From an uncultured Stomatobaculum sp. (GTDB lineage Bacteria; Bacillota; Clostridia; Lachnospirales; Lachnospiraceae), in NCBI GenBank assembly GCA_937990655.1, contig CALKQX010000034.1:184-64183 (forward strand): a DNA stretch of 64,000 bases. The letters are read 5' to 3'. The notes below the pieces were generated by a model. The model was not told where the DNA came from and searched no databases. It saw only the letters and a list, made by a program, of their open reading frames with translations. Each line of letters starts with the position of its first letter. Positions within the stretch are counted from its first letter, which is position 1. The position numbers and the translations under genes are program-made. Shown piece after piece: positions 4,302 to 60,348 of this stretch.

Positions 4302-5165
4302 TTACTTTTCTTGTCCCCGCTCCTTACGGGGTGTAAAGCGTTCCTTGTGAGTGAGCGCATAATAGAATAGGTATTGCTGTAAAATACCCGCGTGCTTCCG
4401 GGCGACCAAGGGGTCCACACCCTGATAGCCCTCACTCACAATGCGCTGCATCCAGACGTCCGAGGGCACGCGCTCCGTTCTGCCGTAGCCAAAGAGCATC
4501 ACGCAGTTCGCGACCTTCTTCCCGACGCCGTGTACGCCCTGTAGTTCCGCAAAGAGTTCCTCATCCGGACGTTTGCGAAGCGCAGCGAGATCAAGCTTCC
4601 CGTCCGCCACGCGGCGCGCGGCGTCCAGCACATAGGGCGCGCGGTAGCCGAGCCCCAAATCCCGCAGGCTTTGCTCCGAGCTTCCGGCAAGCGCCTCCGG
4701 CTTCGGAAAGAGAAAGACCGTCTCTCCGGAAGGTGCCTTTGTCGCCTCGCCGTAGGTCTCGGCCAGCATGCGAACCGCAGTCCGTATGGCCGGAATGGAT
4801 TTTCGTTGCGAGAGCACAAAGGAAACCAGCATCTCAAAGGGCTCCTGCCGGAGCACCCGTATGCCGTCGCCGTGAACCGTCGCCTCGGCGAGCAAGGTAT
4901 CTCCGCTCTCGAAGATATCGCGCTGTATGGCGCTGTAGTCGCGCTCCAGGTCAAAGTAGGGACGCCATACCTTATCCCAGGATTCCGCATCGCAGGAGAC
5001 TTCCACGGCGCAGTCGCCGTGCTGTCTTAACTCCAGCACCTCGTTTCCCGAGATAAAGCGGAACACACCGTCCCCGATTTCACCGGGGCGAAAGCACTGT
5101 CCGCTGTCCGCTATCTTCCGTAAACTCAGTGCTTCCCTGAGCTCTATGGTACGAAACTCCCGCAC
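4302..5165 (-). CDS. HhH-GPD DNA glycosylase (8-oxoguanine glycosylase/AlkA-like)
   Basis: 287-aa ORF with a helix-hairpin-helix Gly/Pro motif (LQGVHGVGKKVANCVMLFGYG ... VPSDVWMQR) after an OGG-N-like N-terminal part. Confidence 0.8.
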   Translation of the reverse strand: MREFRTIELREALSLRKIADSGQCFRPGEIGDGVFRFISGNEVLELRQHGDCAVEVSCDAESWDKVWRPYFDLERDYSAIQRDIFESGDTLLAEATVHGDGIRVLRQEPFEMLVSFVLSQRKSIPAIRTAVRMLAETYGEATKAPSGETVFLFPKPEALAGSSEQSLRDLGLGYRAPYVLDAARRVADGKLDLAALRKRPDEELFAELQGVHGVGKKVANCVMLFGYGRTERVPSDVWMQRIVSEGYQGVDPLVARKHAGILQQYLFYYALTHKERFTPRKERGQEK

Positions 5166-5277
5166 AAGTCCTCCTTCGGTCTACATAAGCGTTATGCTAC
5201 TATCCTAACCCAAATTCAAAAAACCGTCAAATCGGCAAGAAAAAGTCACCCCGAAAGAATTAGATTACTTAAAACGA

Positions 5278-5317
5278 AAGACCACACCAAAAAACAAAGC
5301 CCTTGGTGTGGTCTTTT
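5278..5317 (-). terminator. Rho-independent terminator after the lipoprotein gene
   Basis: Hairpin AAAGACCACACCAA/TTGGTGTGGTCTTT with T-runs on both strands. Confidence 0.65.
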
Positions 5318-5322
5318 TCTTG

Positions 5323-6651
5323 TCAGCGCAGAGCTATGCTCTCATTCCCCGCGACCCCGTGGAGCGTATTCTCTTCCGCGAGCTCCGGACAAGAAATCTG
5401 CACATAGTCGTAGGCACTGCGCGGGAGTTCCCAGTAAAGGGTGCTTCCGTCACCCCGCTGCACGGAAATCTGCTCTTGCTGCGGGTGCTCGCTATTCAGC
5501 TCCCACTCGAAGAAGGGCTGCGCGGAATCTGCCGAAATCTTCTCCGCCCGCGCCTTCATGCCCGAGGCAATCAGGACACCGCCGTCCACGCGGCAACTGC
5601 CGTTCCAGTCGAGCGCTGCGTCCTTGCCGTTGTCCGAGCCGTTCACAAAACTCATACCGCCGCTGAAAATCAAATCGCCGTTCGAGTCGATGCCGTCGCC
5701 GCCCGCGGTCACATGGAGCTCTCCGCCCGAGATATGAACCCAAACTTCCGGATTCGCCTCCTTCTTCTTGGTCTCGGTCTGCGCCTTGTCGTAGTGCTCC
5801 CGCGCGTTCATGCCGTCATCGTCCGCGCTGATGTCAAAGCTTCCGCCGCTCATCTCTATGGTCTTTCCCTCTATACCCTCACTCGTATAGGCAAAGACAT
5901 AGGATCCGCCCGCAAGCGTCACCGCGCCGTCTGAGCTGACACCCTTGCCCTTTTCGCCGCGCACGCTCGCCCGGACCACGCCGCCCTGCAAATCGACGCT
6001 CTCCTTGCCGCGGAAAATATCGTCCTCGGTCTCGATATCATAGGCGCCCTCCGTGACCAAAAGCTCCTCCTTCGCAACGAAGCCCTGATCCGCCGCCGTG
6101 ATGACCGCGCTGCCGCTGCCGGCGAGATATAAATTTCCCTTGGAATAAACGGCCGCTCGAATGTTATCCGGTTCGAGCGCCTCTCCCTTCTTATCGGTTC
6201 TGCCGTCGGTCACGATTTCGTTTGCCTTCTCGCCCTCGAAAATCAGACCGAGTTCCCCGCGCTGCACCGCGCGAATCGCATTTTTTCCGCGAGTGTGAAT
6301 CTTTACCCCGTTGAGATACAGCAGCACGGAGACATTGGCCGCACGCACTTCGATCGGAATGCGACTCTCCCCCTCCAAGCGGTAACTTCCGCCCTCGTGG
6401 ATTACAAGCACGCCCTTCTCGACCGCCGCGCCGCGCCCTTCGATTTTTGCCCGCTCGCCGCGCAGCGTAATCTTCACCACAGCGGCCTCGTCAGCTGCGT
6501 TCGAAGCGGTTCCCAAGCTCGCATCCGAAGCGATTGCGGGCGCTGTCTCGTCCTTAGACTGCGGTTTCGTTGCACAAGCCGTAAGGAGAGCTGCGGAGAG
6601 CGCCGTGAGTAAGAAAAGCGGAAGGAACCCGGTCTTGTTTCTCTGTTTCAT
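5323..6651 (-). CDS. Secreted lipoprotein, Cthe_2159-like carbohydrate-binding/beta-helix repeat protein
   Basis: Track ORF 5323..6663. Start moved to MKQRNKTGFLPLFLLTALSAALLTAC (lipobox LTAC). The body is repetitive and Gly/Asp-rich, as in PF14262-type proteins (family assigned by recollection). Confidence 0.6.
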   Translation of the reverse strand: MKQRNKTGFLPLFLLTALSAALLTACATKPQSKDETAPAIASDASLGTASNAADEAAVVKITLRGERAKIEGRGAAVEKGVLVIHEGGSYRLEGESRIPIEVRAANVSVLLYLNGVKIHTRGKNAIRAVQRGELGLIFEGEKANEIVTDGRTDKKGEALEPDNIRAAVYSKGNLYLAGSGSAVITAADQGFVAKEELLVTEGAYDIETEDDIFRGKESVDLQGGVVRASVRGEKGKGVSSDGAVTLAGGSYVFAYTSEGIEGKTIEMSGGSFDISADDDGMNAREHYDKAQTETKKKEANPEVWVHISGGELHVTAGGDGIDSNGDLIFSGGMSFVNGSDNGKDAALDWNGSCRVDGGVLIASGMKARAEKISADSAQPFFEWELNSEHPQQEQISVQRGDGSTLYWELPRSAYDYVQISCPELAEENTLHGVAGNESIALR

Positions 6652-45474: not shown

Positions 45475-47067
45475 TCATTCGTGTTCGATATTCTGTTTTC
45501 TGGCTGGCGGATCCTGCGCCCGTCCTTCGTTCTTCTTATCATCGTGCAGCCGCTCGGCAGTCATTCGGTCATGAAGTGAAATCTTTCCCTCCGGCCGGAT
45601 CCTCGCGGCCTCATCCTCCGGAAGAGCGCGGCTCACATAATAGCGGATGCTGTTCATCTGATTTAATTCGGCCTGCAGCATTTCCATCTGTAGCGCGGCA
45701 GCCTGAAGCTCCTTTTCCAGTTTTGTCTTTTCTGCTCTCAGAGAAGGAATGTCAACCTGAGGCTTTCCGTCATTCAGCTTCATGATGGTGCGGTAGGCGA
45801 TATTGTAGGACTTCAGTTCATCGGCATATTCCACGGCATACTTCTCTTTGCTCCGTTTGAAATTCTTCTTGATATACGTGTCATGAATCGGCTTCAGCCG
45901 CTTCACGGTATCGCTGGCGGAGAGAAGAGCGTCGATGTCCCGGATACGCCTTTCTTTCGCCCGGCCTTCTGAATGGATGGTCTTGAAATCCGCTTCCAGC
46001 TGATCGACCTTGCCGCGAAGATCTTCCAACGTAACCAGCTTATGCTTTTTCAGAAAAATAACGCAGGCGGTCAGCCTCTCATAGTCGGAAACCGTGCCTT
46101 TCAGCCTCGCGCCGGATGACCAGGTTTCGCGTTCATCACTCCGGATCTGATAGTAATCAGACAAAAGCTCCGCGATGGTCGGCTCCTTCAATTTCGCAAG
46201 CGCCTCCATGAGGATCTGTCTCTTTTCATTCAGATCGAAGAGCCAGCTTCGGATAGATCGGATCGCCTCCCGGATCGACCGCAGCATCCGGTTTGTCTTT
46301 ACGATGTCACGGTTCAGATCACCAAGATTCGTGCGGATGCCCTTAGCCTCAAGATGTGCGTCGGCAGGCCCCATGTGAACGGTCGGCACTTGATCGATTC
46401 CCTGTTTCTCATAAGACTTAAGTGAAACTCGCTCCGGCCTGCCGTTCTTTTCCAAAAATCTGTTCTGAATGTCCTCCCAGCTCTGGCGCCATTTCGCACA
46501 GTTGCCGGGATCGTTCCAGTCATTGGTATTCGCCTTTCGGGTCTTAAAGTTACCGGAGGGAAGACGGATCCTCTCTCCACGCTCATCCAGGACATATTCC
46601 TTTCTGGCCTTGGGGCGCCATCTTCCGTTTTCATCCATCGACCGGAGCGTCAGCATAATGTGAACATGAGGATTGCCGTCATGTTTATCATGGATTGCGA
46701 AATCGCAGCACATGCCCTTGCTGACAAAATTCTGCTGACAATACTCACGCACCATTTGCAGATTTTCTTCCATCGGCAGTTCCCTCGGAAGCGCCATATT
46801 GATCTTCCTGGCAAGCTGAGAATTCCACTGTTTCTCAACCGCCTCGGCGGCGTTCCAGAGCGTCTGCCTGTCCCGGTATTCCGGCGGAGCGTTCTCCGGA
46901 AGCATGATCTCCTCATGGAACACTTCCCGCTGTTTCAGGCTGTAGTCCTTCACGGCCTGTTCGTAATCATAAAAAAGACGGCTGCCGCTGATATAGGCTG
47001 CACTTTCCAATGCAGAGTCGCCATTGCTTCTCTGTGCTATGGAGACATCAAAGTGCGGACAGGGCAT
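45475..47067 (-). CDS. MobQ-type (MobA/MobL family) relaxase
   Basis: N-terminal relaxase core (SALESAAYISG ... LARKINMALPREL ... HDGNPHVHIMLTLR, the HxH metal motif) followed by a long coiled-coil C-terminus. Confidence 0.9.
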   Translation of the reverse strand: MPCPHFDVSIAQRSNGDSALESAAYISGSRLFYDYEQAVKDYSLKQREVFHEEIMLPENAPPEYRDRQTLWNAAEAVEKQWNSQLARKINMALPRELPMEENLQMVREYCQQNFVSKGMCCDFAIHDKHDGNPHVHIMLTLRSMDENGRWRPKARKEYVLDERGERIRLPSGNFKTRKANTNDWNDPGNCAKWRQSWEDIQNRFLEKNGRPERVSLKSYEKQGIDQVPTVHMGPADAHLEAKGIRTNLGDLNRDIVKTNRMLRSIREAIRSIRSWLFDLNEKRQILMEALAKLKEPTIAELLSDYYQIRSDERETWSSGARLKGTVSDYERLTACVIFLKKHKLVTLEDLRGKVDQLEADFKTIHSEGRAKERRIRDIDALLSASDTVKRLKPIHDTYIKKNFKRSKEKYAVEYADELKSYNIAYRTIMKLNDGKPQVDIPSLRAEKTKLEKELQAAALQMEMLQAELNQMNSIRYYVSRALPEDEAARIRPEGKISLHDRMTAERLHDDKKNEGRAQDPPARKQNIEHE

Positions 47068-47232
47068 AAAGCGTTCACCTCCTCGTGAAATAAAAAAGAC
47101 CGTTCACCTTTTCGCAAACAGCCTGGGACAGAGTATTCAGTTTCGGCTGCGGATTCAAACTCGAAGTCCAAGCAGAAGCGCGGAGCAGTTCGCCTGGACG
47201 AGAGTCCGCAAAGGGATAGCCGCAAAGCGGCG

Positions 47233-47255
47233 CAAGGGGAATGCAATTCCCCTTG
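47233..47255. repeat. Perfect 10-bp inverted repeat (candidate oriT hairpin)
   Basis: CAAGGGGAAT-gca-ATTCCCCTTG in the 325-nt non-coding gap between the DUF3847 and relaxase genes. Confidence 0.4.
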
Positions 47256-47392
47256 GGATGACAATCGGGCTGGCAGCCTCCCTCTGGGGCTGACAGCTGC
47301 GATTTCATCGAGCCTCCGGCAGGGAACTCTCGGTAGAGCGCAACCCACCCGGCAAAGGGTGTATAGTTGCGCCTCAATGCTTTCGGGTCTTT

Positions 47393-47704
47393 TCATGTGA
47401 TCTCCTTTTCGGCATCTTCAATCATCTTTTTCAATGCCTCTTTCACTTCTGTCTGCCGGAACGCGACCTTCAGAAGTTCCATGACCTGATCATTGGTCAG
47501 AAGCTCCGGCTGGCCTAAAAAGCTCTCCAGCATTCCAGCTCTGGTACAGAGTCGGTTCGTCCTGGCAGATCGTGTCAGCTGCGGGATCACTTTCTTTCGC
47601 AGGATCTTCTCCTGCTGATCGTAGTAATGCAGCCTCTTCTCCGATTTCTCGATTTCGGCACGAAGCTCTTCAAGGGTTTTCTCTTTTTTCTTTGTCAATG
47701 TCAT
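47393..47704 (-). CDS. DUF3847-like coiled-coil protein (relaxase accessory candidate)
   Basis: Track ORF 47393..47731. Start at MTLTKKKEKTLEEL after GGAGG. ...RTNRLCTRAGMLESFLGQPELLTNDQV... resembles DUF3847. Confidence 0.6.
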   Translation of the reverse strand: MTLTKKKEKTLEELRAEIEKSEKRLHYYDQQEKILRKKVIPQLTRSARTNRLCTRAGMLESFLGQPELLTNDQVMELLKVAFRQTEVKEALKKMIEDAEKEIT

Positions 47705-47787
47705 CACCTCCGTTTGAAAAATTGGCAACAAGAAAGGCCATCAACTTTTTACGGTCGAGAGCCTTTAGTGCGCTCAAAAATATATGA

Positions 47788-49536
47788 TCAGTCAGCTGTC
47801 CATCTGGACTCGAAACGTTCTTTGCTCATTGCCAGTTTATCCTGCAATACTTGCACCTGTTCTTTCCCCTGAGGATACATTCTCATGGCTGTAAAGCTTG
47901 TCTTTGTTGCTGTTCTAATGTCCTTCAAAGAACCCTTTGCTTTAATCCAGTTTTGCGGACTGAAAATTCGTCCTGCTTCAGCTGCTTCAGCTGAAGCGCT
48001 TTCAAATGCCGCGTTTAAGCAGTTTCCTGCCATGTCAATTACTGTATCAAGCAATTCACCGGATACCAAAAGATCGTGTACAACAGCCGGATCCGGAACC
48101 GATTCCGGCATTTTATTCAGCTCACAGAAGATAACTGATATTGCATAAAGATGATGATAAGGCGCGTATGCCTTCATCGCTAACAACGCATCATTCAATC
48201 CCATCGGATTATCCTTGTTCCATTTTTTCTCCAACTCCAGATATAAATCATGAAGCGCCTGAACCTTTCGTGGATCATAATCCTTATGGAACAGTTGGTC
48301 AAAATACTTATCAAATATCTTTGTTTCGCTGGAGGAGATAGTTGGCCTTTGTGAATGCCAAGCAATGAGTTGCTTCCCCAAATCAGTAAGATTAACGATG
48401 TGGTTCGTGTTGTACTTAACGGTATCAGGCCGTTCACCGCGTTTGGTGATAAAGTAGCCATCCGAGTAATACTGCTCATAGGCTTTTTTCATCGCGAGTA
48501 CAGACTTATCATTACTTCGCAAATCACGCGCTTTGACTGCACTTTGTGAGTTGGTCGAAGTACTGATTTTGTCAGCACGTTCAGGATCACTTATCTCATA
48601 AAAGCGGAACATGATATAAGCATCCTTAGCATTTCTCACAGATTCGCTGCAGCTGAATATCGTGCTGAGAGACTGGCATCCATTGACAACATTCAACTCC
48701 TTGATGCTAAGAACATTATCGTGCATCGTAATGCTGGAGCAAATCGCCGTGATACCATTGTGCAGGAAGAAAAAATCCTCGGCGTCATTTTTGATTGTGC
48801 GAGCAATTCCCCTATTTACCTTATTTCCAGCTCCTAATGACTGGCGAACATTTTTCCTAAACAGGCTCCCATCTTTAATGCCTGGAATCCGGATACACTC
48901 TTTGAGAGGAATTGCGGCGATGACTGCCTTTGTCCCACCAACCTTCAGCTCCATATACTTTTCAGGATCAATTGTAAATTCATGATTGATATATGGCCTA
49001 TTCTTATTCAGGGCTTCATCATACTTGAACTTCAGCGTCTCATTGTCCACAAGAACAAGATTAGCGCTCAAAGTTTCACTTTCTGCAAGTTCCTTCTGGA
49101 ATGTTTCCAGATCTGTCTTTGCCGCCTCTGTAAGGCCCGCCGTTGTTATCAGCTCAAAACATATTTCATAATCATCATCCAGAGCAGTCGCCAACTCATT
49201 GATTTTAACCTTAAGCTTTTCATTTGCAGCATCCTGAAGTCGTGCCAGATCCTTGATCTGTATCCAAGAAGATAAAACTTCACGCAGAGGCTCAGCGTCG
49301 ACTACATCTCCGCTGTAAAACTTCCCTTGAATGATATAAACAACCGACGCTTGATTGTCGATATAAATCGCGTCAATCTGTTTATCCCCAGCCCCATCTG
49401 TTATGCAATCCTTCGCTTCAAAGGTATCCAGGTTATGAATGTTTCTTAAATACCAAGCGACAAATCTTTGACCATCATTCGGGTACTGCGTCTGATAGTA
49501 TTCGGTTGTTATTTCTGTCATTATTTTACTGTACAT
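47788..49536 (-). CDS. AIPR-family (abortive infection phage resistance) protein
   Basis: 582 aa. N-terminal nuclease-like motif DGAGDKQIDAIYIDNQASVVYIIQGKF and an AIPR-type C-terminal body (NGCQS..). It is the last gene of the operon. Confidence 0.8.
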   Translation of the reverse strand: MYSKIMTEITTEYYQTQYPNDGQRFVAWYLRNIHNLDTFEAKDCITDGAGDKQIDAIYIDNQASVVYIIQGKFYSGDVVDAEPLREVLSSWIQIKDLARLQDAANEKLKVKINELATALDDDYEICFELITTAGLTEAAKTDLETFQKELAESETLSANLVLVDNETLKFKYDEALNKNRPYINHEFTIDPEKYMELKVGGTKAVIAAIPLKECIRIPGIKDGSLFRKNVRQSLGAGNKVNRGIARTIKNDAEDFFFLHNGITAICSSITMHDNVLSIKELNVVNGCQSLSTIFSCSESVRNAKDAYIMFRFYEISDPERADKISTSTNSQSAVKARDLRSNDKSVLAMKKAYEQYYSDGYFITKRGERPDTVKYNTNHIVNLTDLGKQLIAWHSQRPTISSSETKIFDKYFDQLFHKDYDPRKVQALHDLYLELEKKWNKDNPMGLNDALLAMKAYAPYHHLYAISVIFCELNKMPESVPDPAVVHDLLVSGELLDTVIDMAGNCLNAAFESASAEAAEAGRIFSPQNWIKAKGSLKDIRTATKTSFTAMRMYPQGKEQVQVLQDKLAMSKERFESRWTAD

Positions 49537-49596
49537 GTTGCGTTTGTTCCTTTCGATATTTGCAGATCAGATGGTGTGGCTATCACCTATCATCCT

Positions 49597-52533
49597 TTAT
49601 TCATCAAATGTCAGGAATCCATCCTGGAAAGCGCCAGGGAATGCAAATTTCTTCTGCACATTATCGGCGAACTCCACTGTGATAATACGCCCATCGTACT
49701 TGATAACTTTGCCATTGCCGAACGCCTTGTGCTTCACTCCGACACCAATAACCATCTTTTTGACATCGACGGCAGCTTTGGGCTTAGGCTGCATCCCTCC
49801 ATACGGAGAGAACGGTGCCACTGTCTTTGGCTTCACCTGTCCACCATATGGGGCGGGGCTCTCGCGCACCACAGACGGTCTTGGCTCCGGCCGCTTAACC
49901 GGAGTCACAGGCTTCATAGGTACTTCGTCTTCTTCGTCATCTTCATCATCCATCTGAACCGCCGCTGTAAAGTCCGGCAGATCATTCGGATCCTGTTTGG
50001 CGGCAACCATGGAAGATGCCAGCTGACCAGCCATCATGTCATAGTCTTCACGACTCAGGACGGTGCTGAACAGACCGACTGCCTCACCAGCATGCTTATT
50101 GACTCCAGCGTAAGAAAGTGATGCATCCTCATATCTCTTGAACTTATAAACCGCATCATTCATAAGGGCTTCGTTAAATACGTTCAGGGATACAAGCAGC
50201 TCAAAATCCTCCAGATTCAGACCCGTAACTTTTTTGAATAGTCCCGGTTCAAGCTTGGTAATAACATCTTGCAGACTGTATTCACGATAGTCTGTCAGAT
50301 ACATGAACACCGGAATACGAGTGGCGAATTTAATAAGTTTTTCCTGAATCTGCTTGCGCTTGGATTTGTATTCTTTTTCCTCGTCAGAAAGCTCTTTCTT
50401 TTCTTTTGGGGTGAGCTTATCAGCCTCCTTCTTCGCCTTCTTAACATGTTCTGACTTGTTGATGATTGTCTCTATATCCTGATTAAGTGAACGGAAGCCC
50501 TCAATACGCATCAGCGCATCCATTGCCGCCTGATTTGCCATGAGTCTCGCCAAAGTTTCGTTATCTACATTAACCAGCAATGCAGACTCCCAGCGCTTGG
50601 CAAGCAGCGTCGCAGACGTACCTGCCATCGCGATATCAAGAATCTCGCCAGCGTCCACCTGACGCATGGAGGACCCGTCATAAGCAAGAACCGGCAGGAA
50701 CGAGATGAACTCACCGACCTTCTTCTCAGGGTTCGATTCCTGTACATTCAAACGGCAACTGTAGTCGGAAATCTGCTTCAGGGCACGGTCAAGAGCGAAG
50801 TCGAACAGATAGCACTCCTTCTTGACAATCTCTTTCTTCCCGCTGTCCGTTGTAATCTCCCACGGAGACTGTACACGGAATGCCGCCTGGAAATACGTCT
50901 CAGGGGACTTCAGGTTGCGCAGCATGAAGATGCCTGTCCACGGCTTAATCGTGACGCCGGTCGTCAACTTGCCGCAGGACAGCGTGATGGTCTTGGTCTC
51001 CAAAGGATTACCCATCGACCGCTGTACAGGCTCCAGAGCAGCAAGGCCAATGCCTGCTTTCGTTCCGGCGCACACGTTGACCTTGTAATCATGGTAGAAA
51101 GCGTTCTGCTTCTGAGCAAGCAGGTTCGCCATCGCATAGCAGGACGCTACGTTCGGAAGGAACCACAGCGTATGACTCAGCACGTTCAGCAGACGGGTGT
51201 CCGAGTACGGCATCGGCGGCTTCTCGGCCCCGAGTTTCAGTTCGTCCACCGACGTTTCCAGATAGGAACCGCGAATCAGGTCAAGCCATTTCTGCACGTA
51301 GTCTTCGTATACGAACCGGGCGTTCTTCTCCTTGCCGGTGGCAGAGAAGAACACGTTCAAATCGAACTCGTCAAACTCGCCCTGTTTTGCGATCCGCTGG
51401 ATAGAATCGGGAATCTTATACGTCAGCATAACCATACGAGGCAGCGCCTCATACGGATTGTCAGCACCCTTCCATGCAGCCTTCGCACGCTGTTCATCGC
51501 TGTACGTCCAGTTGTAAATCTGGTCCTCGATGAACTCGCCGCTGTTCAGTGCTCTGAACGGAGTACCGGAGAGAAAGAGATAGTGGCTGGTCGTTATCGG
51601 CAACCACGTTTCATCGTAGGCGTTGCCGCGATTGTAGTTGCTGAGGTCCTCATCGACATCTTCTTCGTCCGACTCGAAGAGGTTCTTCGCGTTCTCCTTC
51701 CATGCGCCAAAATGGTACTCGTCGAACACAACGAGGTCCCAGTTGGTCGTATGCACCCATTCGTTCTTGGACTTGATGCCGCCGGTGTTCCTATCGACAC
51801 CGAGGAAGTCCTGGAAGGAACCGAAGCAGACGATAGGTCGCTTCTTGTCGGCCATCTTATACTGCGTGTCTGTATTCGGTTCGCTGGGATTCGACGGGCG
51901 GGAGATGAACTGCCAGCCGTCAAAATCAACGTGCTGCGACAGATCATCATACCATGCAGATTCTACAGCAGGCTTGAAGGTTAGAATCAGCACACGGGAA
52001 AATCCCATCTTCTTCGCCAACTGGTAAGTAGCAAAGGTCTTGCCAAAACGCATCTTCGCGTTCCAGAGGAACTTCGGGATACGTCCGGTCCCTTCGGCCT
52101 CCATGTTCTTGTAGTAGGCGATGGTCTTATCTACAGCCTGTGCCTGCTCCGGGCGCATTCTAAAGGTCTGCGTCCTGTTCTCGGCGTTCAGGGTCCCGGT
52201 CTTCATGGCGATGATAGCCGCCTGCACGTCCTTGACCGTACACTTGAACCACTCGCCGCCGACAGCCTTGATGCCTTTCTTCCGAAGGATGGCGTGGACA
52301 TCATGGTCCATGAAGACGCTGCCGTCAGGGAACATGGCAGGCTCACGAAGGACAATCTTGTACGGAACGGAACCGTCCGGGCGCTTTGTAGGATACTGCT
52401 GCGCCACACGCTGGTCTACGTCCACCGCCGTGTATCCGACCTTCAGGCAGCCGGGATACTGGTCGTCGGTGTAGGCGTAAATCATCGGACGTGACTCAGT
52501 CCATTCCGGGAAGAAATCTTCTATACGAGGCAT
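49597..52533 (-). CDS. T5orf172/GIY-YIG-superfamily domain fused to a ResIII-type SF2 helicase, with a C-terminal Tudor-like domain (restriction-subunit candidate)
   Basis: N-terminus IYAYT..LKVGYT..R..EWF. Helicase motifs RFGKTF (I), DEYH (II), SGTPF (III) and QAAFR (VI). Acidic/Pro-rich linker, then a C-terminal VKHKAFGNGKVIKYDGRIITVEF. The ATG directly follows the MTase TAA. Confidence 0.8.
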   Translation of the reverse strand: MPRIEDFFPEWTESRPMIYAYTDDQYPGCLKVGYTAVDVDQRVAQQYPTKRPDGSVPYKIVLREPAMFPDGSVFMDHDVHAILRKKGIKAVGGEWFKCTVKDVQAAIIAMKTGTLNAENRTQTFRMRPEQAQAVDKTIAYYKNMEAEGTGRIPKFLWNAKMRFGKTFATYQLAKKMGFSRVLILTFKPAVESAWYDDLSQHVDFDGWQFISRPSNPSEPNTDTQYKMADKKRPIVCFGSFQDFLGVDRNTGGIKSKNEWVHTTNWDLVVFDEYHFGAWKENAKNLFESDEEDVDEDLSNYNRGNAYDETWLPITTSHYLFLSGTPFRALNSGEFIEDQIYNWTYSDEQRAKAAWKGADNPYEALPRMVMLTYKIPDSIQRIAKQGEFDEFDLNVFFSATGKEKNARFVYEDYVQKWLDLIRGSYLETSVDELKLGAEKPPMPYSDTRLLNVLSHTLWFLPNVASCYAMANLLAQKQNAFYHDYKVNVCAGTKAGIGLAALEPVQRSMGNPLETKTITLSCGKLTTGVTIKPWTGIFMLRNLKSPETYFQAAFRVQSPWEITTDSGKKEIVKKECYLFDFALDRALKQISDYSCRLNVQESNPEKKVGEFISFLPVLAYDGSSMRQVDAGEILDIAMAGTSATLLAKRWESALLVNVDNETLARLMANQAAMDALMRIEGFRSLNQDIETIINKSEHVKKAKKEADKLTPKEKKELSDEEKEYKSKRKQIQEKLIKFATRIPVFMYLTDYREYSLQDVITKLEPGLFKKVTGLNLEDFELLVSLNVFNEALMNDAVYKFKRYEDASLSYAGVNKHAGEAVGLFSTVLSREDYDMMAGQLASSMVAAKQDPNDLPDFTAAVQMDDEDDEEDEVPMKPVTPVKRPEPRPSVVRESPAPYGGQVKPKTVAPFSPYGGMQPKPKAAVDVKKMVIGVGVKHKAFGNGKVIKYDGRIITVEFADNVQKKFAFPGAFQDGFLTFDE

Positions 52534-54078
52534 TTACTTGTCACCTCCCTCCAGGTCCATGGGGCGAATCATTGATTCGATAAAGGCAACCTCATCGTCG
52601 TTAAGGCCATATTTTGCATACAGTTCATCATCAGTCCAAGGCTTGGAAAAATCCTGCAACGGCACAAATGAAAACGTTGTTCTACTAATATGTATCGACG
52701 TCAAAGCCTGAAGGACCAGAAACCGGACAAATGATGTCCACAAGTAACTAAGCATGTTTTGGGCTTGCATTCTGTTTTCAACTGGGCCTGCACATAAATA
52801 GGAATGCGTACACACTTCTTTGGGGCCGAGGACCTGCATTGAAGAAGTCAAAACGCGATATTTACCATCTTTTCCCGGTTCTCCTGCATGTTCAGCGCTT
52901 GTTTGACTTATCAACACTTTATGAGCATCAAAATAAGGATTCTGGATAAAACCCCTATCCATGGGAATATAGCTCTCTCCAGCACTAGAAATCATCCTAA
53001 TACTATTTGTAGCTGTTCTCACAGTATTACCTCGAACCTTTGTGCTCAACGCAAAGGGACTTATTGCACTTAATATGTCAGAGAAAAACTTGGTATCAGT
53101 ATTTTGAATCTTATGAATAATATCGATTGCTTTATTGTATCTTACAAGCACTTCGTATTCATCTAAGAACCTCTTTTCAGTGTCCTGTTCAGCCCCGGTT
53201 ACACTTGTAAACTCACAATCTCCTTCATGATCTCTATCCCAAAAAAAATAGCACACCCCTCCGCTGATACTATTTTGAGGAAAACAATCCTTCGCATTAG
53301 GAAAATCCACCATTTTCCGGATATGTTTATCTGATAGCATTCCTTTCCTGAAACTATCTAAACCCATACCACCAGCAAACCATCTAGACGGCACTATCAT
53401 AGTTAAATAGCGTGGTTTAAGTTTTTTTGCCTGTTCAACAAAAAGATGATAAATGGGTTTTGCCTGCTTTGCTGAATTTTCTTGACCACCACCAGTGCTT
53501 AACTGATACGGCGGATTGCCGATAATCACATCAAATTTCATATTGAATATGTCCTCCAGTTTTCCGGTATGAATGAATTCATATGCGTAGGTCTCCAGTT
53601 CATTTTCTCGATTGTATTCTTTCTCTGAAGCACCACACCACGCACATTTTCCATTTCGCCATACATGCTGGGTGTTCTTGAACCGGATGTTTCCCTGCAC
53701 ATCATCGAACAGAGAAACCGAATACTTACTGTTCGGATACTTGGAGCAATATATACTGCGTCTTGCAAGAAGGCTTGTCATCTCCGTGATTGCGATGCCG
53801 AACACCTGCTTATGCATGATATGGTCAAGGCGAGTCTGCAGGTCCGGAATCCGACCTTCCAGTCCGACCAACAGACGCTTCACAATCTCACGGAGGAATA
53901 TACCTGACTTCGTGCCGGGGTCCAGAAACGTCGTATCGGGACTCTCAAAGAGTTCCTGCGGCAGCATGTCCAGCATGGCGTTCGCCACTTCCGGCGGCGT
54001 AAAGACCTCATCGCTGGAGAGGTTCGCAAGACACGACAGTACGTCGGGGTTATATGCCGCGTAGTATAAATCACTCAT
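52534..54078 (-). CDS. Eco57I-family (gamma-class) N6-adenine DNA methyltransferase
   Basis: FTPPEVANAML (motif X), FLDPGTKSGIFL (motif I variant), FDVIIGNPPYQ (motif IV), a CAWC insert, and a C-terminal putative target-recognition part. Confidence 0.85.
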   Translation of the reverse strand: MSDLYYAAYNPDVLSCLANLSSDEVFTPPEVANAMLDMLPQELFESPDTTFLDPGTKSGIFLREIVKRLLVGLEGRIPDLQTRLDHIMHKQVFGIAITEMTSLLARRSIYCSKYPNSKYSVSLFDDVQGNIRFKNTQHVWRNGKCAWCGASEKEYNRENELETYAYEFIHTGKLEDIFNMKFDVIIGNPPYQLSTGGGQENSAKQAKPIYHLFVEQAKKLKPRYLTMIVPSRWFAGGMGLDSFRKGMLSDKHIRKMVDFPNAKDCFPQNSISGGVCYFFWDRDHEGDCEFTSVTGAEQDTEKRFLDEYEVLVRYNKAIDIIHKIQNTDTKFFSDILSAISPFALSTKVRGNTVRTATNSIRMISSAGESYIPMDRGFIQNPYFDAHKVLISQTSAEHAGEPGKDGKYRVLTSSMQVLGPKEVCTHSYLCAGPVENRMQAQNMLSYLWTSFVRFLVLQALTSIHISRTTFSFVPLQDFSKPWTDDELYAKYGLNDDEVAFIESMIRPMDLEGGDK

Positions 54079-54727
54079 AGTCGTTCAGCCTCCTATAGTC
54101 TGTAGGCGGGTATTCCTGTACGGGGCTTGGAATGAATGCCTGTATCTCTTCGTCATACTCCCAGCCGATCATAAAGATCGTCATCTGTTGTTCGTGACCG
54201 TCCAACAGTTCATTCAGCCTGTAGTCACGGCGCTTGATGCTGTCGCCTGTCACAAGGCTCCACTCCGCGAAGGTGATGGGAGCACCGTCGTTCTGAAGCA
54301 TGGTCAGCGCATCCCCGCAGAGGATGTTCTTCTTCAGAATGAACCGCGCCACCTCACGGCACTGGTCGTTTGCCTGCTCCTTCGCATACTGCGTATACTC
54401 GGCGTTCCAGATATCAAAAAGGTTCTGGCGGCAAATCTCCGCATTGTCCTCCATGATATCCACGCCGTAAATGCTGGTCAGCGCCAGTATCGCGTAACGC
54501 TCGTAGTCATACGGGCTTTTCTTATATCTGTTTTTCACCACTTCAAGTTTGCGCCGAAGGATTTCTTTCAGGAAAGCCCCCTCACCGCAGGCAGGTTCCA
54601 GAAAACGGCTGTCTATGCGCTCTGTCTCCGGCTTCACCAAATCCAGCATCGCATTGACTTCGCGCTCGTTCGTGAAAACCTCACCGTGTTCGGCGACACG
54701 CTCTTTGGATTTCACCTGTGCAGCCAT
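54071..54727 (-). CDS. SAM-MTase-like protein lacking catalytic motif IV
   Basis: GEVFTNEREVNAMLDLV (X), FLEPACGEGAFL (I), IYGVDI and NILCGDAL are present, but there is no (D/N)PP(Y/F). 8-nt overlap with the MTase start. Confidence 0.65.
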   Translation of the reverse strand: MAAQVKSKERVAEHGEVFTNEREVNAMLDLVKPETERIDSRFLEPACGEGAFLKEILRRKLEVVKNRYKKSPYDYERYAILALTSIYGVDIMEDNAEICRQNLFDIWNAEYTQYAKEQANDQCREVARFILKKNILCGDALTMLQNDGAPITFAEWSLVTGDSIKRRDYRLNELLDGHEQQMTIFMIGWEYDEEIQAFIPSPVQEYPPTDYRRLNDYE

Positions 54728-54728
54728 G

Positions 54729-54920
54729 TCATACCTCTTTTTCCAGTTCTTTCAGTTTTCTCTGTTTTTCCTCATAGTCATCCAGATAAAGAATCAATGC
54801 TCTCTCTACCGCAACGGTCTTGGACTGGCCTGCATCTTCGCAGAAGCCCTCCAGTCTTTCATAAATCGGTGTCTCTATACAAACATTGAGATAGGTGCCG
54901 TTTTTCTTAGGTCTGGCCAT
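54729..54920 (-). CDS. Ribbon-helix-helix (CopG-like) regulator
   Basis: Track ORF 54729..54941. AGGAGG lies 7 nt before ATG 54920. TYLNVCIETPIYERLEGFCEDAGQSKTVAVERALILYL shows a beta-alpha-alpha pattern. Confidence 0.7.
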   Translation of the reverse strand: MARPKKNGTYLNVCIETPIYERLEGFCEDAGQSKTVAVERALILYLDDYEEKQRKLKELEKEV

Positions 54921-54935
54921 CGCAAATCCTCCTGT

Positions 54936-54989
54936 CATCAATGAACATTACATCAATGATGCTATACCACAATTCACTACTATTTTCAA
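54936..54989 (-). promoter_or_regulatory. Operon promoter plus tandem candidate RHH operators
   Basis: On the minus strand: TTGAAA (54984-54989), 17 nt, TATAGC (54961-54966). Two copies of CATCAATGA (plus strand, 54936-54944 and 54951-54959, 15-nt period) lie between the -10 box and the RBS. Confidence 0.45.
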
Positions 54990-55291
54990 TTCTTTACCAC
55001 GGTTTTATCTGAATTGATTCCGTGCTTTTTAGCATACTCGCTGGCCGCCTTGCGTCTGGCCTCGCTGTACGGTGCAATCAGACGGATGGAGACGCGGGAT
55101 TTCTGGATCACATAGCTCACACTGCCCAAGGCTTTGTTCTCTTCCTTCAGCTTACAGAGATCCGGGTGCTGAACCGCGAATTTCTTCAGCCAGTTCTTCA
55201 GGTCAGTATTGAACGTGTAGATATCCCAGAAGTCATCGTCTTCGTTTGTCAGAAGGATCGTTTCCCTCTCATATTTCCTAAGTCTGCTCAT
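54986..55291 (-). CDS. Hypothetical protein (mobile-element associated)
   Basis: Track ORF 54986..55363. Start moved to MSRLRKYERE after GAAGGGAGAA. No family recognised. Confidence 0.45.
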   Translation of the reverse strand: MSRLRKYERETILLTNEDDDFWDIYTFNTDLKNWLKKFAVQHPDLCKLKEENKALGSVSYVIQKSRVSIRLIAPYSEARRKAASEYAKKHGINSDKTVVKN

Positions 55292-55390
55292 AGCTTCAAT
55301 TCTCCCTTCAAAATCACAAGTGTAGAGCCGCCATTCTGCGCATGAATGACGGCTCCCGGACATTTACTCACACCTGACTGTGCTTGGGCA

Positions 55391-55954
55391 TTACTTCTTT
55401 ACCGTGAAATATCCCAGGTCATCAGTCTTGATCCGCCACAGATCATCCATCTTGCGTGCCTCCGCCAGCAAGGCCGGATAAGCTTCCTGCCGGAAGACGT
55501 TCATGTCCGCCACCTGATTCCGAAGATCCAGGACGAGCTTCTTCACTTCCGGATCGACCGTGACGTGATGCACAAAATCCAGGCGTGACACGGTATGGCC
55601 GCAGGAGTCACTTCCGAAAGCAGCAAGGATCTTCCTCCTGGCAAAGCCTCTCCAGGGAAGATCTCCGCATACCTTCCCAGTCCTCTCCAGATAATCCTTC
55701 TCCATCTGCTGGATGTTTGCTTCCGTTTCGAGCCGGATCTCCTGGATAAGCTCTGTGAATTCGTCAGCAGTGATCCCAGCGCTGTTGATCAGATCCATGA
55801 GGGTCATAAGGATGGCTCCGGTCAGGTCGCCCTCGCACATTGAAGCGGCAATCTTTAGATTGCATGAGGTGGCCGTCTTATCTGGCTGCCCGAAAGCGAA
55901 AAGCGCGTTCTTCTGGGTCTCGGTGAGCGTGTTGATGTTTACATACTGGTTCAT
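55391..55954 (-). CDS. Hypothetical protein (mobile-element associated)
   Basis: 187-aa ORF with a plausible RBS. No family recognised with confidence. Confidence 0.45.
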   Translation of the reverse strand: MNQYVNINTLTETQKNALFAFGQPDKTATSCNLKIAASMCEGDLTGAILMTLMDLINSAGITADEFTELIQEIRLETEANIQQMEKDYLERTGKVCGDLPWRGFARRKILAAFGSDSCGHTVSRLDFVHHVTVDPEVKKLVLDLRNQVADMNVFRQEAYPALLAEARKMDDLWRIKTDDLGYFTVKK

Positions 55955-56001
55955 AGTTTTACCTGCCTTTCATAAAAATGATGTGATTGTTTTCCCATAT
56001 C

Positions 56002-56032
56002 AAAAGCCGCCTTTCAGTGGGTGAAAGACGGC
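56002..56032 (-). terminator. Hairpin terminator after the recombinase/small-membrane-protein unit
   Basis: GCCGCCTTTCA-loop-TGAAAGACGGC with a T-run on the minus strand. Confidence 0.5.
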
Positions 56033-56077
56033 TCTGATATGTAATGCCTGGCGGCGTTCTCTATTCTGTTTTGCGAC

Positions 56078-56362
56078 TCATAACCTGATAAAATCGCTCA
56101 AAGCTCTGCGCAGGAGAGCGATCCTCTCTGTCAGCCAATCCCCGATATGAGGGATCAGGAAGAGTACAAACGCAGCGCTCATCAGTTTCAGGAAGTCCGT
56201 GCCGGATGCCAGTCCGAACATTAGACTGGCAATTCCGGTTGCGGCGAAAAGGAAGGAGAGGATGCCGAATATCGCTCCTGAAATGCCGTTCAGGAAGATG
56301 GTGATCCACTGGAGCAAAACCGCCACCGGCATTACCGGAAGCAATACAATCTTTGCAATCAT
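56078..56362 (-). CDS. Small two/three-TM membrane protein
   Basis: Inside track ORF 56078..56548. ATG 56362 abuts the recombinase stop. MIAKIVLLPVMPVAVLLQWITIFLNGISGAIFGILSFLFAATGIASLMF. Confidence 0.5.
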   Translation of the reverse strand: MIAKIVLLPVMPVAVLLQWITIFLNGISGAIFGILSFLFAATGIASLMFGLASGTDFLKLMSAAFVLFLIPHIGDWLTERIALLRRALSDFIRL

Positions 56363-56363
56363 T

Positions 56364-58850
56364 TTAAACAGCTTCACGTTCGGCCACCTCCTTCTTTTTC
56401 TGGTAATAATCCCTGAGGTAATCACGGTTGTATTCCTGCTGGGTGATGAGCTTGAAGGCAGCCTCCGAAACACCTTCCTCAGCAAGTTTCCGGAGATTCT
56501 CGTTATACCGGTTTGTGGCCTCCAGACCTCGGCTGCGTTTTTCGGCAAGCTTTCTGGCAGCCTCCGGATCGGTCTCGGCGGCTTCCTTCAGCTCCGCGTA
56601 CCTCCGATTGGCATCATCACGCTTTTTCTGTTTCTTAGCTTCCAGCTTTCTGGCGGCATTGGGATCGGTCTTTGCCTGCTCCTCCAGTTTCTTCCGGCTT
56701 TTGGTTGATGCCGCCACACCATATGCTCTCATTTTGGCAAGCTTCCGAGCAGCCTCTTCATCCCCTTCGGCGGCAAGGCGCTTCAGTTCATCTCTTTCAG
56801 CCTTTCTTTTTGCCGTCCGGCGTTTAGTGTACTCTTTCTTCCTGACGGCCTGTTCAGCTGCAAATTCCGGGTCTTCAGCTGTTCTTTTTTTCTTCTTTTC
56901 CGTACTTTTCTCCCGGCTTGCTGCTTCCCGCTCTAAGAGGGCTTCATATTGTTCGGCGGCCTCTGTGTCCGTCCTCGCGGCTTCCTTCAGGGCAGCACGG
57001 CGTGCGTTCGTGTTCCGGACATATTCCGCTTCCTTCTGCCTGCGGTGCTCGGCATATGCGGGATCATTGGCCTTTCGCTCCTTCTTGCGCTCTGCATTCC
57101 GTTTGTTGTCCCTGGCATGCTTCTCGCGTTTCTGCCGGAGGATCTCTGCCGCATCCGGATTATCGGCGGCAAGTGGTTCCAGTTCACGGATCTTCAGCTT
57201 CCGAAGCTTGGAAAGGCGCTTCCGCTTTTCACGCTCTGCCAGAATCTCCGGATCCACCTTGCCTGTCCGGTATTCGGCATTTCGTTTCCGGCTCAAGGCC
57301 AGCATCGCTTCATATTCGGCTGCGGCCTCCGGATCGGTCTTGGCCCGTTCCTTAAGGTCACGGCGGTGCTGATTGCGCCTTTCATTCTCTCGGATCTTGG
57401 CCTGACGTATCTTATCGTTCTTCTCATCCTCGATGGACTTCAGCCTGGCAGCTTCTTCCTCCGGATCAACGGTGGGGATATAGGAACCGATAAAGCTGAA
57501 GTAAATGTCGATCTGCTGCTCCCGGTTGTTCCCGCGACCGGTGCCGGCATGGACATCGATCCGCTCGATCAGGGCATAGAGCATGTCATCGGTGACTTCC
57601 TCGAAGCTGCGGTATTGCCGGATGAGAGAAGTGAAGCGTTCGATCCCGACCTTCTTCGGAGCCTTCTCCGCAGTCGGGGCTTCCAGCTCCGCGACGCGGC
57701 CTTCCACCTTGATCTGCTCCTCATCATATTGGGCCATGAGCTTCTGGAACTGCCTGTCCGGTATCAGTCCCTTCGCCTGATTTTCATAGAGTCCCTTGAT
57801 CAGAAGATCCAGCTCATCTACACGCCGTTTGGCGGCGGCAAGTTCCTTCTTCTGATCTTCGGATACCTGGTTATGGCTCTTGTTCCACTGTTCCAGGAGG
57901 CGGGCGGCGAAGGCTTCTTCATCCTGAAGGACATCTCTTGTGACCGCTCTCAGAGAATAGCGGATCGCCTCCTCCACGGTAGATGCCTTGATGAAATGAG
58001 ACGTACACTGGTAGTTCACATTCCGGTAATGGCTGCACTGGAAGGAACTCATGGAATCGAAGATGGTTCTGTTTTCGCAGTGCTCGGAGTCCGGTGCCGT
58101 GTAGGAAAGCCTCGCGCCGCAGTCCGCGCAGAACATCATGCCGGAAAGACGGTGTGTGGCACGGCCATTGGATAGCCGCCTCGGTCTGCGGTTGATGAGC
58201 TTCTGTGCTCTGTCCCAGGTTTCCTGATCGATGATCGCCTCATGGGTATCCGGGAAGAAGAACAGCTCGTCCTCGGTTGCCTTTCTGCGCTTCTTGGTCT
58301 TGAAATTCTCGGTGATCATCTTGCCCAGGACGGTATACCCCAGATATTCCTGACGTTCTAGGATATATTTCACGCTGGTGCTCGTCCAGCGGTACGGGTC
58401 ATTGTAGCTGTGGTTATGGCATTCCACGCCCTCATGGGTCTCAGCGTAGGCAGACGGAATCGGAATCCTTTCATCCGTCAGAGTCTGGGCGATGGTTCCC
58501 ATCGGGACGGCATCAGCTGCCATCTGGAAGATCCGCTTCACCACAGCTGCCGCTTCGGGATCCACATAGAAATTCTGCTTGTCGCCGGGCATCTTCTTAT
58601 AGCCATAGGGAACCGATCCGCTGCATCTTTGGCCGTTCTCCATACGGTTTCGGAAGACGGCACGGATCTTCTTGCTGGTGTCCTTGGCGTACCACTCGTT
58701 CATGATATTTAGGAACGGGATGAATTCGTTATCGGTCGGATTGTCGCTGTCAATATTATTGTTGACGGCAATGAAGCGGACACCCTTGTCCGGGAAAAGC
58801 ATTTCCGTATAGAAGCCCACCTGAAGATAGTTCCTGCCGAAGCGGCTCAT
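56364..58850 (-). pseudogene. Large serine recombinase, 5'-truncated (catalytic resolvase N-terminus missing)
   Basis: The ORF begins at MSRFGRNYLQVGFYTE, which in intact enzymes lies ~90 aa in, after the catalytic Ser. The recombinase and zinc-ribbon domains are present, followed by a ~370-aa K/R/E/A-rich repeat tail. The IS110 end abuts codon 1. Confidence 0.85.
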
Positions 58851-59116: not shown

Positions 59117-59131
59117 TTGGAGGTATATCCT

Positions 59132-60348
59132 ATGTTGAACGCTGTCGGTATTGATGCTTCAAAAGGCCAAAGCACTATCTCAATCCTGCGTCCGGCAGGT
59201 GAAATTGTACGGAAGCTTTTCAATGTTGTTCATTCTGTCAAAGAGCTCTCGGAGCTGGTCTCCTTTGTCGGTAGTCTTGAAGGTGAGACCAGAGTCGTCA
59301 TGGAGACAACCGGCCATTATCATGAACCGATACTCAAGGCTTTCCTCGATTCAGGCATTTTGTCTCTGCCGTTAATCCTTCTCTTATCAAGCGTCATGAC
59401 AGTGATGAAAATCCACTTCGCAAGGTCAAGTCAGATCCTGCGGATGCCAGAAAAATCGCCAAGTATACCCTTGACAAGTGGGAGTATCTGCATCAGCATT
59501 CAGCTATGGATACTACTCGAACACAACTAAAAACATTGAATACGCAGTTTCATTTCTTTATGCAGCAGAAGGTCTCTTTGAAGAATAATCTTATTTCCCT
59601 TCTGGATCTGACTTATCCTAGCGCAAATGCTCTATTTGACAGCCCGGTCCGCTCTGATGGAAGTGAAAAATGGATTGATTACGTACATTCCTTCTGGCAT
59701 GTGGACTGTGTCCGTAAGATCGGTCTTAAAGCCTTCACAGAGCGCTATCAGAGCTTCTGCAAGCATCATGGCTATAACTTTCAGCCACGCAAACCAGAAG
59801 AGCTTTTTAACGCTTCCAGGGAACTTGTCGCTGTCGCTCCGAAAGATCCTGTTTATAAACAGATCATCCTCGGCAACATCGAGCAGCTGAACACGGTTTC
59901 CAAACAGATTGAAGAATTCCGCCACAAGATGAATGAGCTTGCATCTTCGCTTCCGGAATACCAGACTGTTATGTCCATGTACGGCGTCGGACCAACATAT
60001 GGACCTCAGCTTATGGCTGAGATCGGTGATATTTCGCGTTTTGATCATCGCTCTGCCATCACGGCCTTTGCAGGTGTGGACCCGGGAGTTAACCAGTCAG
60101 GGACGATGAACTATGAGAGCAATCGTGCTTCAAAGCACGAAGCACCCCGTCTTCGAAAAACTCTTTTCCAAATCATGACCACCTTACTTCAGCTAGCGCC
60201 TTCGGACAATCCGGTCTATCGCTTCATGATGAAAAAGAAATCAGAAGGAAAACCTTATCAGGTATACATGACCGCCGGAGCGAATAAGTATCTTCGCATC
60301 TACTACGGGAAAGTCAAAGAATACCTGGCCGCGGGGGCTGCTGAATAA
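59132..60348 (+). pseudogene. IS110-family transposase (DEDD N-terminal domain + C-terminal Ser domain), frameshifted
   Basis: Track ORFs 59117..59530 and 59506..60348 are the two halves (MLNAVGIDASKGQST...METTGHYHEP / ...VSAVNPSLIKRHDSDENPLRKVKSDPADARKIA...GVGPTYG...AGVDPGVNQSG). The frames join at the TTTT run at 59358-59361. Confidence 0.8.

Follow-up and report, generated by a model that had tools for sequence, protein, structure and literature searches.

Three adjacent genes of an uncultured Stomatobaculum sp., carried on the minus strand of the 64,000-nucleotide stretch of DNA analyzed here (the window; contig CALKQX010000034.1), probably encode an ATP-dependent translocating restriction-modification (RM) system, in which the nuclease is of the GIY-YIG type and one subunit is a pseudo-methylase. 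This reading, to which we give preference with real but incomplete confidence, is drawn from sequence comparison and from analogy with known enzymes. The trio consists of a 218-amino acid (aa) truncated methylase-like protein (54071..54727), a 514-aa Eco57I-family gamma-class N6-adenine methylase (52534..54078), and a 978-aa protein (49597..52533), in which a T5orf172 domain precedes a superfamily 2 (SF2) motor. The gene of a probable ribbon-helix-helix (RHH) regulator of 63 aa (54729..54920) lies before these genes, and that of a 582-aa AIPR/AbiU-like protein (47788..49536) lies after them, both also on the minus strand. An earlier note on this DNA had taken all five genes for one undescribed defense system built from non-canonical parts. 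The conserved unit consists of three genes (those of the 218-aa, 514-aa, and 978-aa proteins), not five, and the AbiU-like gene is, in the preferred reading, a separate entity.

This delimitation comes from a neighborhood survey, in which fetched loci were searched with the five window proteins. The family of the 978-aa protein is very large, with at least 8000 proteins matched in a word-indexed search and 1118 clusters (50% identity) at E ≤ 1e-30 in an exhaustive search. Homologues are carried by at least 600 species genomes from at least 10 phyla (one genome per species being scanned), among which are Bacillota, Bacteroidota, Actinomycetota, Spirochaetota, Pseudomonadota, Chloroflexota, Verrucomicrobiota, Fibrobacterota, Myxococcota, and Nitrospirota; members of the trio families also occur on plasmids and prophage-like contigs. 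Upstream genes were counted in 64 non-redundant species-representative loci with at least 2.3 kb of upstream DNA. All of them (64/64) have a 514-like methylase gene ahead of the helicase gene and in the same orientation, and 61 have a 218-like gene immediately preceding that of the methylase, two of the three misses being contig ends. The IMG/VR contigs, an independent set, give the same picture (58/59 for the methylase, 56/59 for the 218-like gene). In the 165 homologous loci examined, no AIPR gene stands beside the trio, and no RHH homologue was found upstream of it. The conserved gene neighborhood that the earlier note had expected is, thus, present for the trio, and is lacking for the AIPR and RHH genes.

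That the five genes nevertheless form one integrated system, with AIPR as a dedicated abortive-infection effector and the RHH protein as a dedicated controller, is very unlikely. The genes are co-directional and tightly packed, with just 60 nt and no terminator-like hairpin before the AIPR gene, and Pfam describes AIPR as frequent in RM operons, but the survey places neither partner beside homologous trios. Moreover, a 91%-identical AIPR is encoded in an unrelated four-gene cassette (DUF6414, AAA_5 ATPase, AIPR, and WYL regulator; L094-L098, with L094:6065-10754), and the nucleotide similarity (77%) of the two AIPR genes starts and stops at the ends of the open reading frames (ORFs). This DUF6414-AAA_5-AIPR-WYL run may be a separate defense cassette. 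The same-strand gene following the helicase gene also varies between genomes, the downstream slot being occupied elsewhere by unrelated genes, for example, GmrSD, AAA_21, OLD-like, HD-CE, SIR2, Piwi, Uma2, Fic, or some housekeeping genes. Because of this survey and of the occurrence of AIPR elsewhere, the trio is considered as the conserved unit, AIPR as autonomous, and the RHH gene as a local addition.

In 19 surveyed loci (L005, L024, L045, L046, L073, and L079 among them), the methylase and helicase genes are separated by further, unrelated genes. They code for HEPN_Apea (twice), a YhcG PDDEXK nuclease, Schlafen/AlbA_2 together with HATPase_c_4, AAA_21/AAA_15, and RhuM; one wedged ORF of 445 aa, which carries no annotation, is probably a transposase. 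Defense-type genes wedged in the trio operon resemble PrrC inside a Type I RM locus. PrrC with EcoprrI is also the precedent for a guard model, in which AIPR and the other slot genes would be kept latent under the RM complex and would fire upon phage inhibition. The repeated presence of toxin-like genes (HEPN_Apea, AAA_21, Schlafen/AlbA_2, YhcG nuclease) between the methylase and helicase genes and the apparent co-transcription of AIPR here speak for such a model. However, these partners are unrelated and interchangeable, and AIPR occurs without the trio, which makes the model extremely unlikely.

The 978-aa protein provides the nuclease and the motor. Its domains are, in order, a T5orf172 nuclease domain (residues ~14-112; 52198-52494, from Pfam), an SF2 motor of the ResIII type (residues ~124-560; 50854-52164, from Pfam and alignment), a helical region, a disordered linker, and a C-terminal UvrD/PcrA-like Tudor domain (residues ~925-978; 49600-49761, from Foldseek and a weak Pfam match). 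The Pfam matches are T5orf172 (6.5e-9; 36.7 bits for a cut-off of 20), MUG113, and ResIII (2e-5). T5orf172 domains are members of the GIY-YIG superfamily, of which the GIY..YIG..R..E residues are kept here. In an alignment of family sequences that are 31-62% identical, Y19, K31, G33, R42, D76, and E94 of this domain are invariant and H80 is nearly so, while the motor keeps K165 (Walker A), D271/E272/H274 (DEYH), G323/T324 (SGT), and Q549/R553 (motif VI) without exception. The motifs quoted in the earlier note (IYAY, LKVGYT, EWF, RFGKTF, DEYH, SGTPF, and QAAFR) all fall on invariant columns, and the catalytic residues of both the nuclease and the motor are invariant across phyla. The GIY-YIG-superfamily nuclease that the earlier note had placed N-terminal to an SF2 motor is, therefore, confirmed as T5orf172 by Pfam and the alignment, and its idea of an ATP-dependent RM-like system is supported, for the trio, by the Pfam domains and these invariant residues. 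When ten divergent members were scanned for alternative N-terminal nucleases, the T5orf172/MUG113 match was retained in six; a different N-terminus is present only in a lactococcal fused form, with a weak DUF4145 match. The T5orf172 domain of Odn, from phage ICP1, is a proven nuclease (PMC8263062).

Structure predictions were compared at the domain level only. AlphaFold gives the T5orf172 domain a beta-beta-alpha-beta-alpha topology, with a predicted local distance difference test score (pLDDT) of 67-86. The disordered linker and small C-terminal beta domain anticipated from the letters alone are both seen in the model (pLDDT <50 at residues ~797-921, and ~84 for the beta domain). With Foldseek, the motor matches Snf2/ISWI, XPB, RapA, Mfd, LlaGI (5ffj), and EcoR124I HsdR, which are double-stranded DNA translocases. 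The last ~50 residues match the UvrD C-terminal Tudor-like domain (7egt_B; TM score 0.76, root-mean-square deviation 2.3 Å), in agreement with a weak Pfam match to PcrA_UvrD_tudor (E 0.017). This C-terminal extension is found in 41 of the 82 homologues surveyed, the others ending at about residue 830-850.

The 514-aa protein matches Eco57I in Pfam (E 1.8e-41), as well as MTase_II (1.7e-41) and REase_MTase_IIG (6.4e-32) in PADLOC. Compared with the sequences of solved structures, it gave a marginal match to a Type I HsdM. The motif order (X, I ... IV) is that of the gamma class, and the family conserves FLDP..K.G.FLRE and DVIIGNPPY, with the quoted FTPPEVA and GNPPYQ lying on invariant columns. 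Residues ~291-465 are hypervariable, with a mean identity of 24-34%, versus 58-69% for residues 1-290. Even in comparison with the closest relative (L001; helicase 88% and 218-aa protein 89% identical), the catalytic part of the methylase is 81% identical, and residues 291-465 only 33%. From this variability, the segment is predicted to be the methylase's own target-recognition domain (TRD). A hypervariable TRD beside a conserved core is what diversifying selection would be expected to produce in an RM system that is active. The methylase family also conserves a Cys/His cluster (C111, H138, C145, and C148), located between motif I and NPPY (~53635-53748), and this may be a zinc-binding insertion. 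In a copy of the window's element from another sample (L086:8458-10000), a 2-bp deletion in the TRD splits the methylase into 373 and 149 aa; the nuclease-helicase gene is intact in this copy and, at a coverage of 3.8x, the deletion may be an assembly error.

The 218-aa protein looks like half a methylase. Its Pfam matches are limited to the first third of N6_Mtase/MmeI_Mtase, and the segment from residue 16 to 104 shares 32% identity with residues 24-110 of the 514-aa methylase. Motif X (GEVFT) and motif I (FLEPACGEG.FL) show practically no variation across 62 sequences of its family, in which YGVDI and N..CGDAL (motif II/III-like) and I.F.EW are also conserved, the last 60 residues are variable, and the NPPY catalytic motif was not found. 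A family that keeps motif I and has no NPPY agrees with the catalytically dead second methylase-like subunit foreseen in the earlier note. As its S-adenosylmethionine (SAM)-binding loop is strictly conserved, the protein is presumed to be a SAM-binding partner. The AlphaFold model, built on a shallow alignment (pLDDT 75), has a methylase-like fold; its best match in the PDB is the adenine methylase CamA, followed by LlaGI and PglX, and LlaBIII is also matched.

The distribution of this small protein follows that of the enzymes. A homologue (37% identity, E 3e-35), annotated as 'N-6 DNA methylase', is encoded on the Lactococcus lactis plasmid pCV56A, directly upstream of a fused helicase-methylase of 1452 aa, and a weaker look-alike precedes the fused enzyme of Lactiplantibacillus plantarum. 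Since it is found with split forms throughout the surveyed loci and with at least one fused form, the 218-aa protein appears to be a standard companion of the enzymes of this clade. In three distant IMG/VR loci (L167, L168, and L170; ~4300-5990), a single methylase ORF stands upstream of the helicase gene, with an N-terminal half that is 218-like (30%, residues 5-185) and a C-terminal half that is 514-like. This arrangement suggests that the 218-aa gene arose as a duplicated, truncated methylase paralogue.

Single-chain relatives of the trio are also known from sequence. Proteins of 1120-1460 aa contain T5orf172, ResIII, and Eco57I in this order, and the 978-aa and 514-aa proteins align with them head to tail; a plasmid-borne example is the 1417-aa protein of Lactiplantibacillus plantarum. 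The REBASE-derived PADLOC profile PDLC03626 ('REase_MTase_IIG') likewise matches the 978-aa protein at profile positions 152-800 and the 514-aa protein at positions 1010-1357. Judged from these alignments, the trio corresponds to single-chain nuclease-motor-methylase-TRD enzymes in split form. We know of no characterized member among the PDLC03626-type single-chain proteins, and the lactococcal fused enzyme gave no match when compared with the sequences of solved structures. The window version is split, while the profile describes a single chain, and the IIG label is one of convenience. Calling the parts non-canonical and the system undescribed was, in this light, an overstatement, as the profile matches two of the three proteins, and fused relatives exist. 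The proteins are, in addition, present in RefSeq (WP_308520933-937, uncultured Stomatobaculum sp.), with functional names for the 514-aa ('Eco57I restriction-modification methylase domain-containing protein'), 978-aa ('GIY-YIG nuclease family protein'), and 582-aa ('AIPR family protein') products; the 63-aa and 218-aa products are both hypothetical there.

Several known RM types share parts of this design. The fused relatives have the domain order of the Type ISP enzymes LlaGI and LlaBIII, i.e., nuclease, SF2 motor, gamma-class N6-adenine methylase, and C-terminal TRD. The trio also has the SF2 motor, followed by a gamma-class methylase with a C-terminal TRD, the structures of LlaGI and LlaBIII are matched by the models of the motor and of the 218-aa protein, and neither system has a separate specificity subunit. 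Nevertheless, Type ISP enzymes are single polypeptides with an N-terminal Mrr-like PD-(D/E)xK nuclease, whereas the trio is split into 514-aa, 978-aa, and 218-aa proteins, with the methylase gene ahead of the motor gene, carries T5orf172/MUG113 instead, and has an additional pseudo-methylase subunit. No sequence-level match to LlaGI or LlaBIII was detected.

Type III systems (EcoP15I) similarly consist of two components, a methylase and a ResIII-type ATPase-nuclease. In these, the SAM-binding Mod subunit is a dimer, of which one protomer only methylates, and this offers a possible analogy for the 218/514 pair. The trio was not assigned to this type, as Mod is a beta-class enzyme with an internal TRD, while the 514-aa methylase belongs to the gamma class (Eco57I), and as the Res nuclease is a C-terminal PD-(D/E)xK domain, while the 978-aa protein ends in a linker and a UvrD-like Tudor domain and has its nuclease at the N-terminus. 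An ATPase motor is absent from the classical Type IIG/IIL enzymes (Eco57I, MmeI), in which nuclease and methylase are fused. The trio differs from them by its SF2 ATPase and by having the nuclease and the methylase on different chains. A Type I assignment was also rejected, the operon having no HsdS-like ORF and its variable region lying inside the 514-aa methylase.

BREX, MADS, and DISARM were discarded as well, since none of their partner genes (PglZ/BrxC; Mad1-8; DrmA/B) is present in the operon and the methylase-domain matches from PADLOC and NCBIfam are sub-threshold only. A related possibility is methylation-guided exclusion in the manner of BREX or DISARM, in which replication would be blocked or DNA degraded without site-linked cleavage, T5orf172 serving mainly for DNA binding or nicking. 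The methylase and the 218-aa protein do give weak matches to the PglX and MAD2 profiles, and some T5orf172 proteins are reported to be nickases or domesticated DNA binders. The matches are, however, far below the cut-offs (26 versus 500 bits, 24 versus 720 bits), the partner genes of these systems are missing from the operon, and the catalytic Arg and Glu of the GIY-YIG fold are invariant; exclusion of this kind is, thus, quite unlikely.

A close precedent is the YeeA(DnmA)-YeeB-YeeC cluster of Bacillus subtilis and relatives, which has the same parts: an SF2 helicase and a T5orf172/GIY-YIG protein accompany an N6-adenine methylase that lacks a nuclease of its own. As in the trio family, these genes form a conserved operon on horizontally acquired DNA; they have been put forward as a type of RM system that modifies a single strand. 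Its helicase and T5orf172 protein are separate, T5orf172 being C-terminal, whereas the trio fuses T5orf172 N-terminally to the motor. The descriptions also set the methylases apart, with a large MmeI-like YeeA of about 880 aa and a compact 514-aa Eco57I-type protein in the trio, and no small pseudo-methylase is described for the cluster. Morgan et al. (2009) reported nuclease-free MmeI-like methylases with the helicase YeeB and the GIY-YIG protein YeeC at their flanks, suggesting a new type of RM system (PMC2731913); Smith et al. (2012; PMC3553950) later drew attention to relatives of RM systems that carry helicase domains as well as GIY-YIG nucleases. With such a cluster proposed in 2009 and studied since (PMC9973331), the earlier note's claim of novelty weakens further: the trio is a widespread variant of RM parts foreseen in 2009.

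If the preferred reading is right, the 514-aa methylase would read a specific, probably asymmetric site and methylate host DNA. On unmethylated DNA, it would recruit or activate the 978-aa motor, which would hydrolyze ATP and translocate on double-stranded DNA, so that the GIY-YIG-type nuclease cuts away from the site, in the way known from Type ISP and Type I enzymes. The 218-aa protein would bind SAM without being catalytic itself and would pair with the methylase, the motor, or both, either as a structural pseudo-dimer partner or as a licensing subunit. The RHH protein, with its candidate TCATTGATG operator, might set the moment of expression once the mobilizable element has been transferred, and AIPR would work on its own, providing a second line of defense.

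Several observations weigh against this mechanism. AlphaFold models the 978-aa protein poorly at full length (mean pLDDT 52), with only the N-terminal, RecA1, and C-terminal domains being usable, and the comparison of the helicase with the sequences of solved structures yielded only a 35-residue match to RapA around the DExH motif. The structural matches are only indicative, because the full-length model is poor and no solved structure has a related sequence. In the 514-aa methylase, a Lys replaces the first Gly of the GxG of motif I, and its activity is assumed from sequence, as are the non-catalytic nature and SAM binding of the 218-aa subunit, whose role we purely infer. The frameshifted methylase of L086, if real, argues against a lethal restriction activity. 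Literature searches retrieved no characterized member of the T5orf172-helicase/methylase family. Finally, Fernandez et al. reported that DnmA-YeeB-YeeC of Bacillus subtilis is inactive as an RM system, with no restriction of plasmids and no protection from the three phages used (PMC9973331).

This last result supports the view that the trio does not restrict, and is instead an epigenetic or 'relic' module like DnmA-YeeB-YeeC, or an aid to the mobile element (e.g., by methylating transferred DNA), the helicase-nuclease then serving another DNA transaction. The location on a mobilizable element and the L086 copy, with its intact nuclease gene beside a frameshifted methylase, would also fit. This view is, however, unlikely, given that neither the nuclease nor the motor shows any change in its catalytic residues from phylum to phylum, that the TRD is hypervariable, and that the trio is found repeatedly in defense islands, with defense genes wedged into its operon. 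YeeABC-type clusters are, moreover, reported to be protective in Vibrio: PMC9973331 cites such a cluster as protecting Vibrio crassostreae from some phages.

A more ambitious version of the preferred reading, which we regard as tentative and on balance doubtful, would see in the trio a distinct ATP-dependent restriction class. Here, a GIY-YIG nuclease would be mounted on a Snf2/XPB-like motor, the dead SAM-binding half-methylase would be an obligate regulator, and the long form would, in addition, carry a tether of the UvrD/PcrA Tudor type. The half-methylase could, for example, license cleavage or sense the depletion of SAM by phage SAM-degrading enzymes. The Tudor-like C-terminal domain of UvrD/PcrA binds UvrB or RNA polymerase, and that of the 978-aa protein might tether the enzyme to either of them and, thereby, link restriction with transcription or repair.

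The trio is one of the more common RM-like modules that are still uncharacterized. It is already caught by existing RM profiles and represents no new principle of immunity; the AIPR gene adds nothing new. Demonstrating a translocase-driven GIY-YIG-type nuclease, together with a role for the pseudo-methylase, would fill a gap between the Type I, ISP, and IIL enzymes that was pointed out by Morgan et al. in 2009 (PMC2731913) and Smith et al. in 2012 (PMC3553950). Characterization of the trio would also allow methylome studies of gut Bacillota and Bacteroidota to assign motifs.

The operon layout was confirmed by ORF calling on the window, with the coordinates, junctions, and quoted motifs of the five minus-strand ORFs. 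The 63-aa and 218-aa genes are joined as TGA-c-ATG, the 218-aa and 514-aa genes overlap by 8 nt, as they do in both relatives checked (L001 and L005), and the ATG of the 978-aa gene immediately follows the stop codon of the 514-aa gene. The frequency of terminator-like sites in the window does not exceed that in shuffled sequence. A putative sigma-70-like promoter was read from the sequence at 54961..54989 (minus strand), with a -35 TTGAAA (54989-54984), a 17-nt spacer with TG at -15/-14, and a -10 TATAGC (54966-54961); TTGAAA-17-TATAGC is only consensus-like, and falls below the rule of the consensus scanner. As the genes upstream are co-directional, transcriptional read-through into the operon is possible, and the single promoter of the earlier note is only putative. 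Between the putative -10 and the ribosome-binding site of the RHH gene, two perfect 9-nt direct repeats of TCATTGATG (coding strand; 54936..54959, minus strand), 15 nt apart from start to start, are a candidate operator, and only a lead, since short repeats in two copies can occur by chance.

The regulator gene is specific to this element. Its ORF is 63 aa long from the ATG, or 70 aa from an upstream TTG, and is preceded by an AGGAGG ribosome-binding site. The matches to RHH_1 (E 0.0076; 16.6 bits for a cut-off of 20.5) and to a RelB-like antitoxin (E 0.0021; 18.2 bits for a cut-off of 50) are weak, while the size and position fit an RHH-type regulator, which the protein probably is. Profile searches, thus, recovered the Eco57I, T5orf172, ResIII, and AIPR assignments made beforehand, with RHH_1 remaining below its cut-off. 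In the closest relatives (L001-L004:6179-7835), a WYL-domain protein and a 233-aa T5orf172/DUF4357 protein precede the trio, with no RHH gene.

The 582-aa protein matches AIPR (PF10592) at E 1.5e-37 (130.4 bits for a cut-off of 25) and the PADLOC AbiU profile at E 6.6e-40 (profile positions 106-512 of 537), which makes it an ordinary member of the AbiU/AIPR family, with no notable difference and moving independently of the trio. On this basis, it is predicted to be an autonomous abortive-infection-type gene, possibly co-transcribed with the trio here.

As already proposed in the earlier note, the genes are cargo of a mobilizable element, and lie between a large serine recombinase (56364-58850) on one side and DUF3847 (47393-47731) and a MobA/MobL relaxase (45475-47067) on the other, all on the minus strand. 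These assignments come from Pfam searches on identical genes of the metagenomic contig L087, which equals the window at 100% identity over 22.9 kb. As delimited from these matches, the span 45475..58850 (minus strand) covers the recognizable mobility genes of the element, not its mapped ends. No near-identical DNA was found in plasmid and phage collections. The GC content is 0.44-0.47 at 47-50 kb and 52-55 kb and 0.51-0.52 at 50-53 kb, the operon being below the ~0.50-0.60 typical upstream of 46 kb. An IS110-family transposase in two overlapping ORFs (DEDD_Tnp_IS110 and Transposase_20; 59117-60348) adjoins the serine recombinase and, beyond it, a 968-aa DEAD/ResIII/Helicase_C ORF (60460-63366) is possibly part of another restriction-type system.

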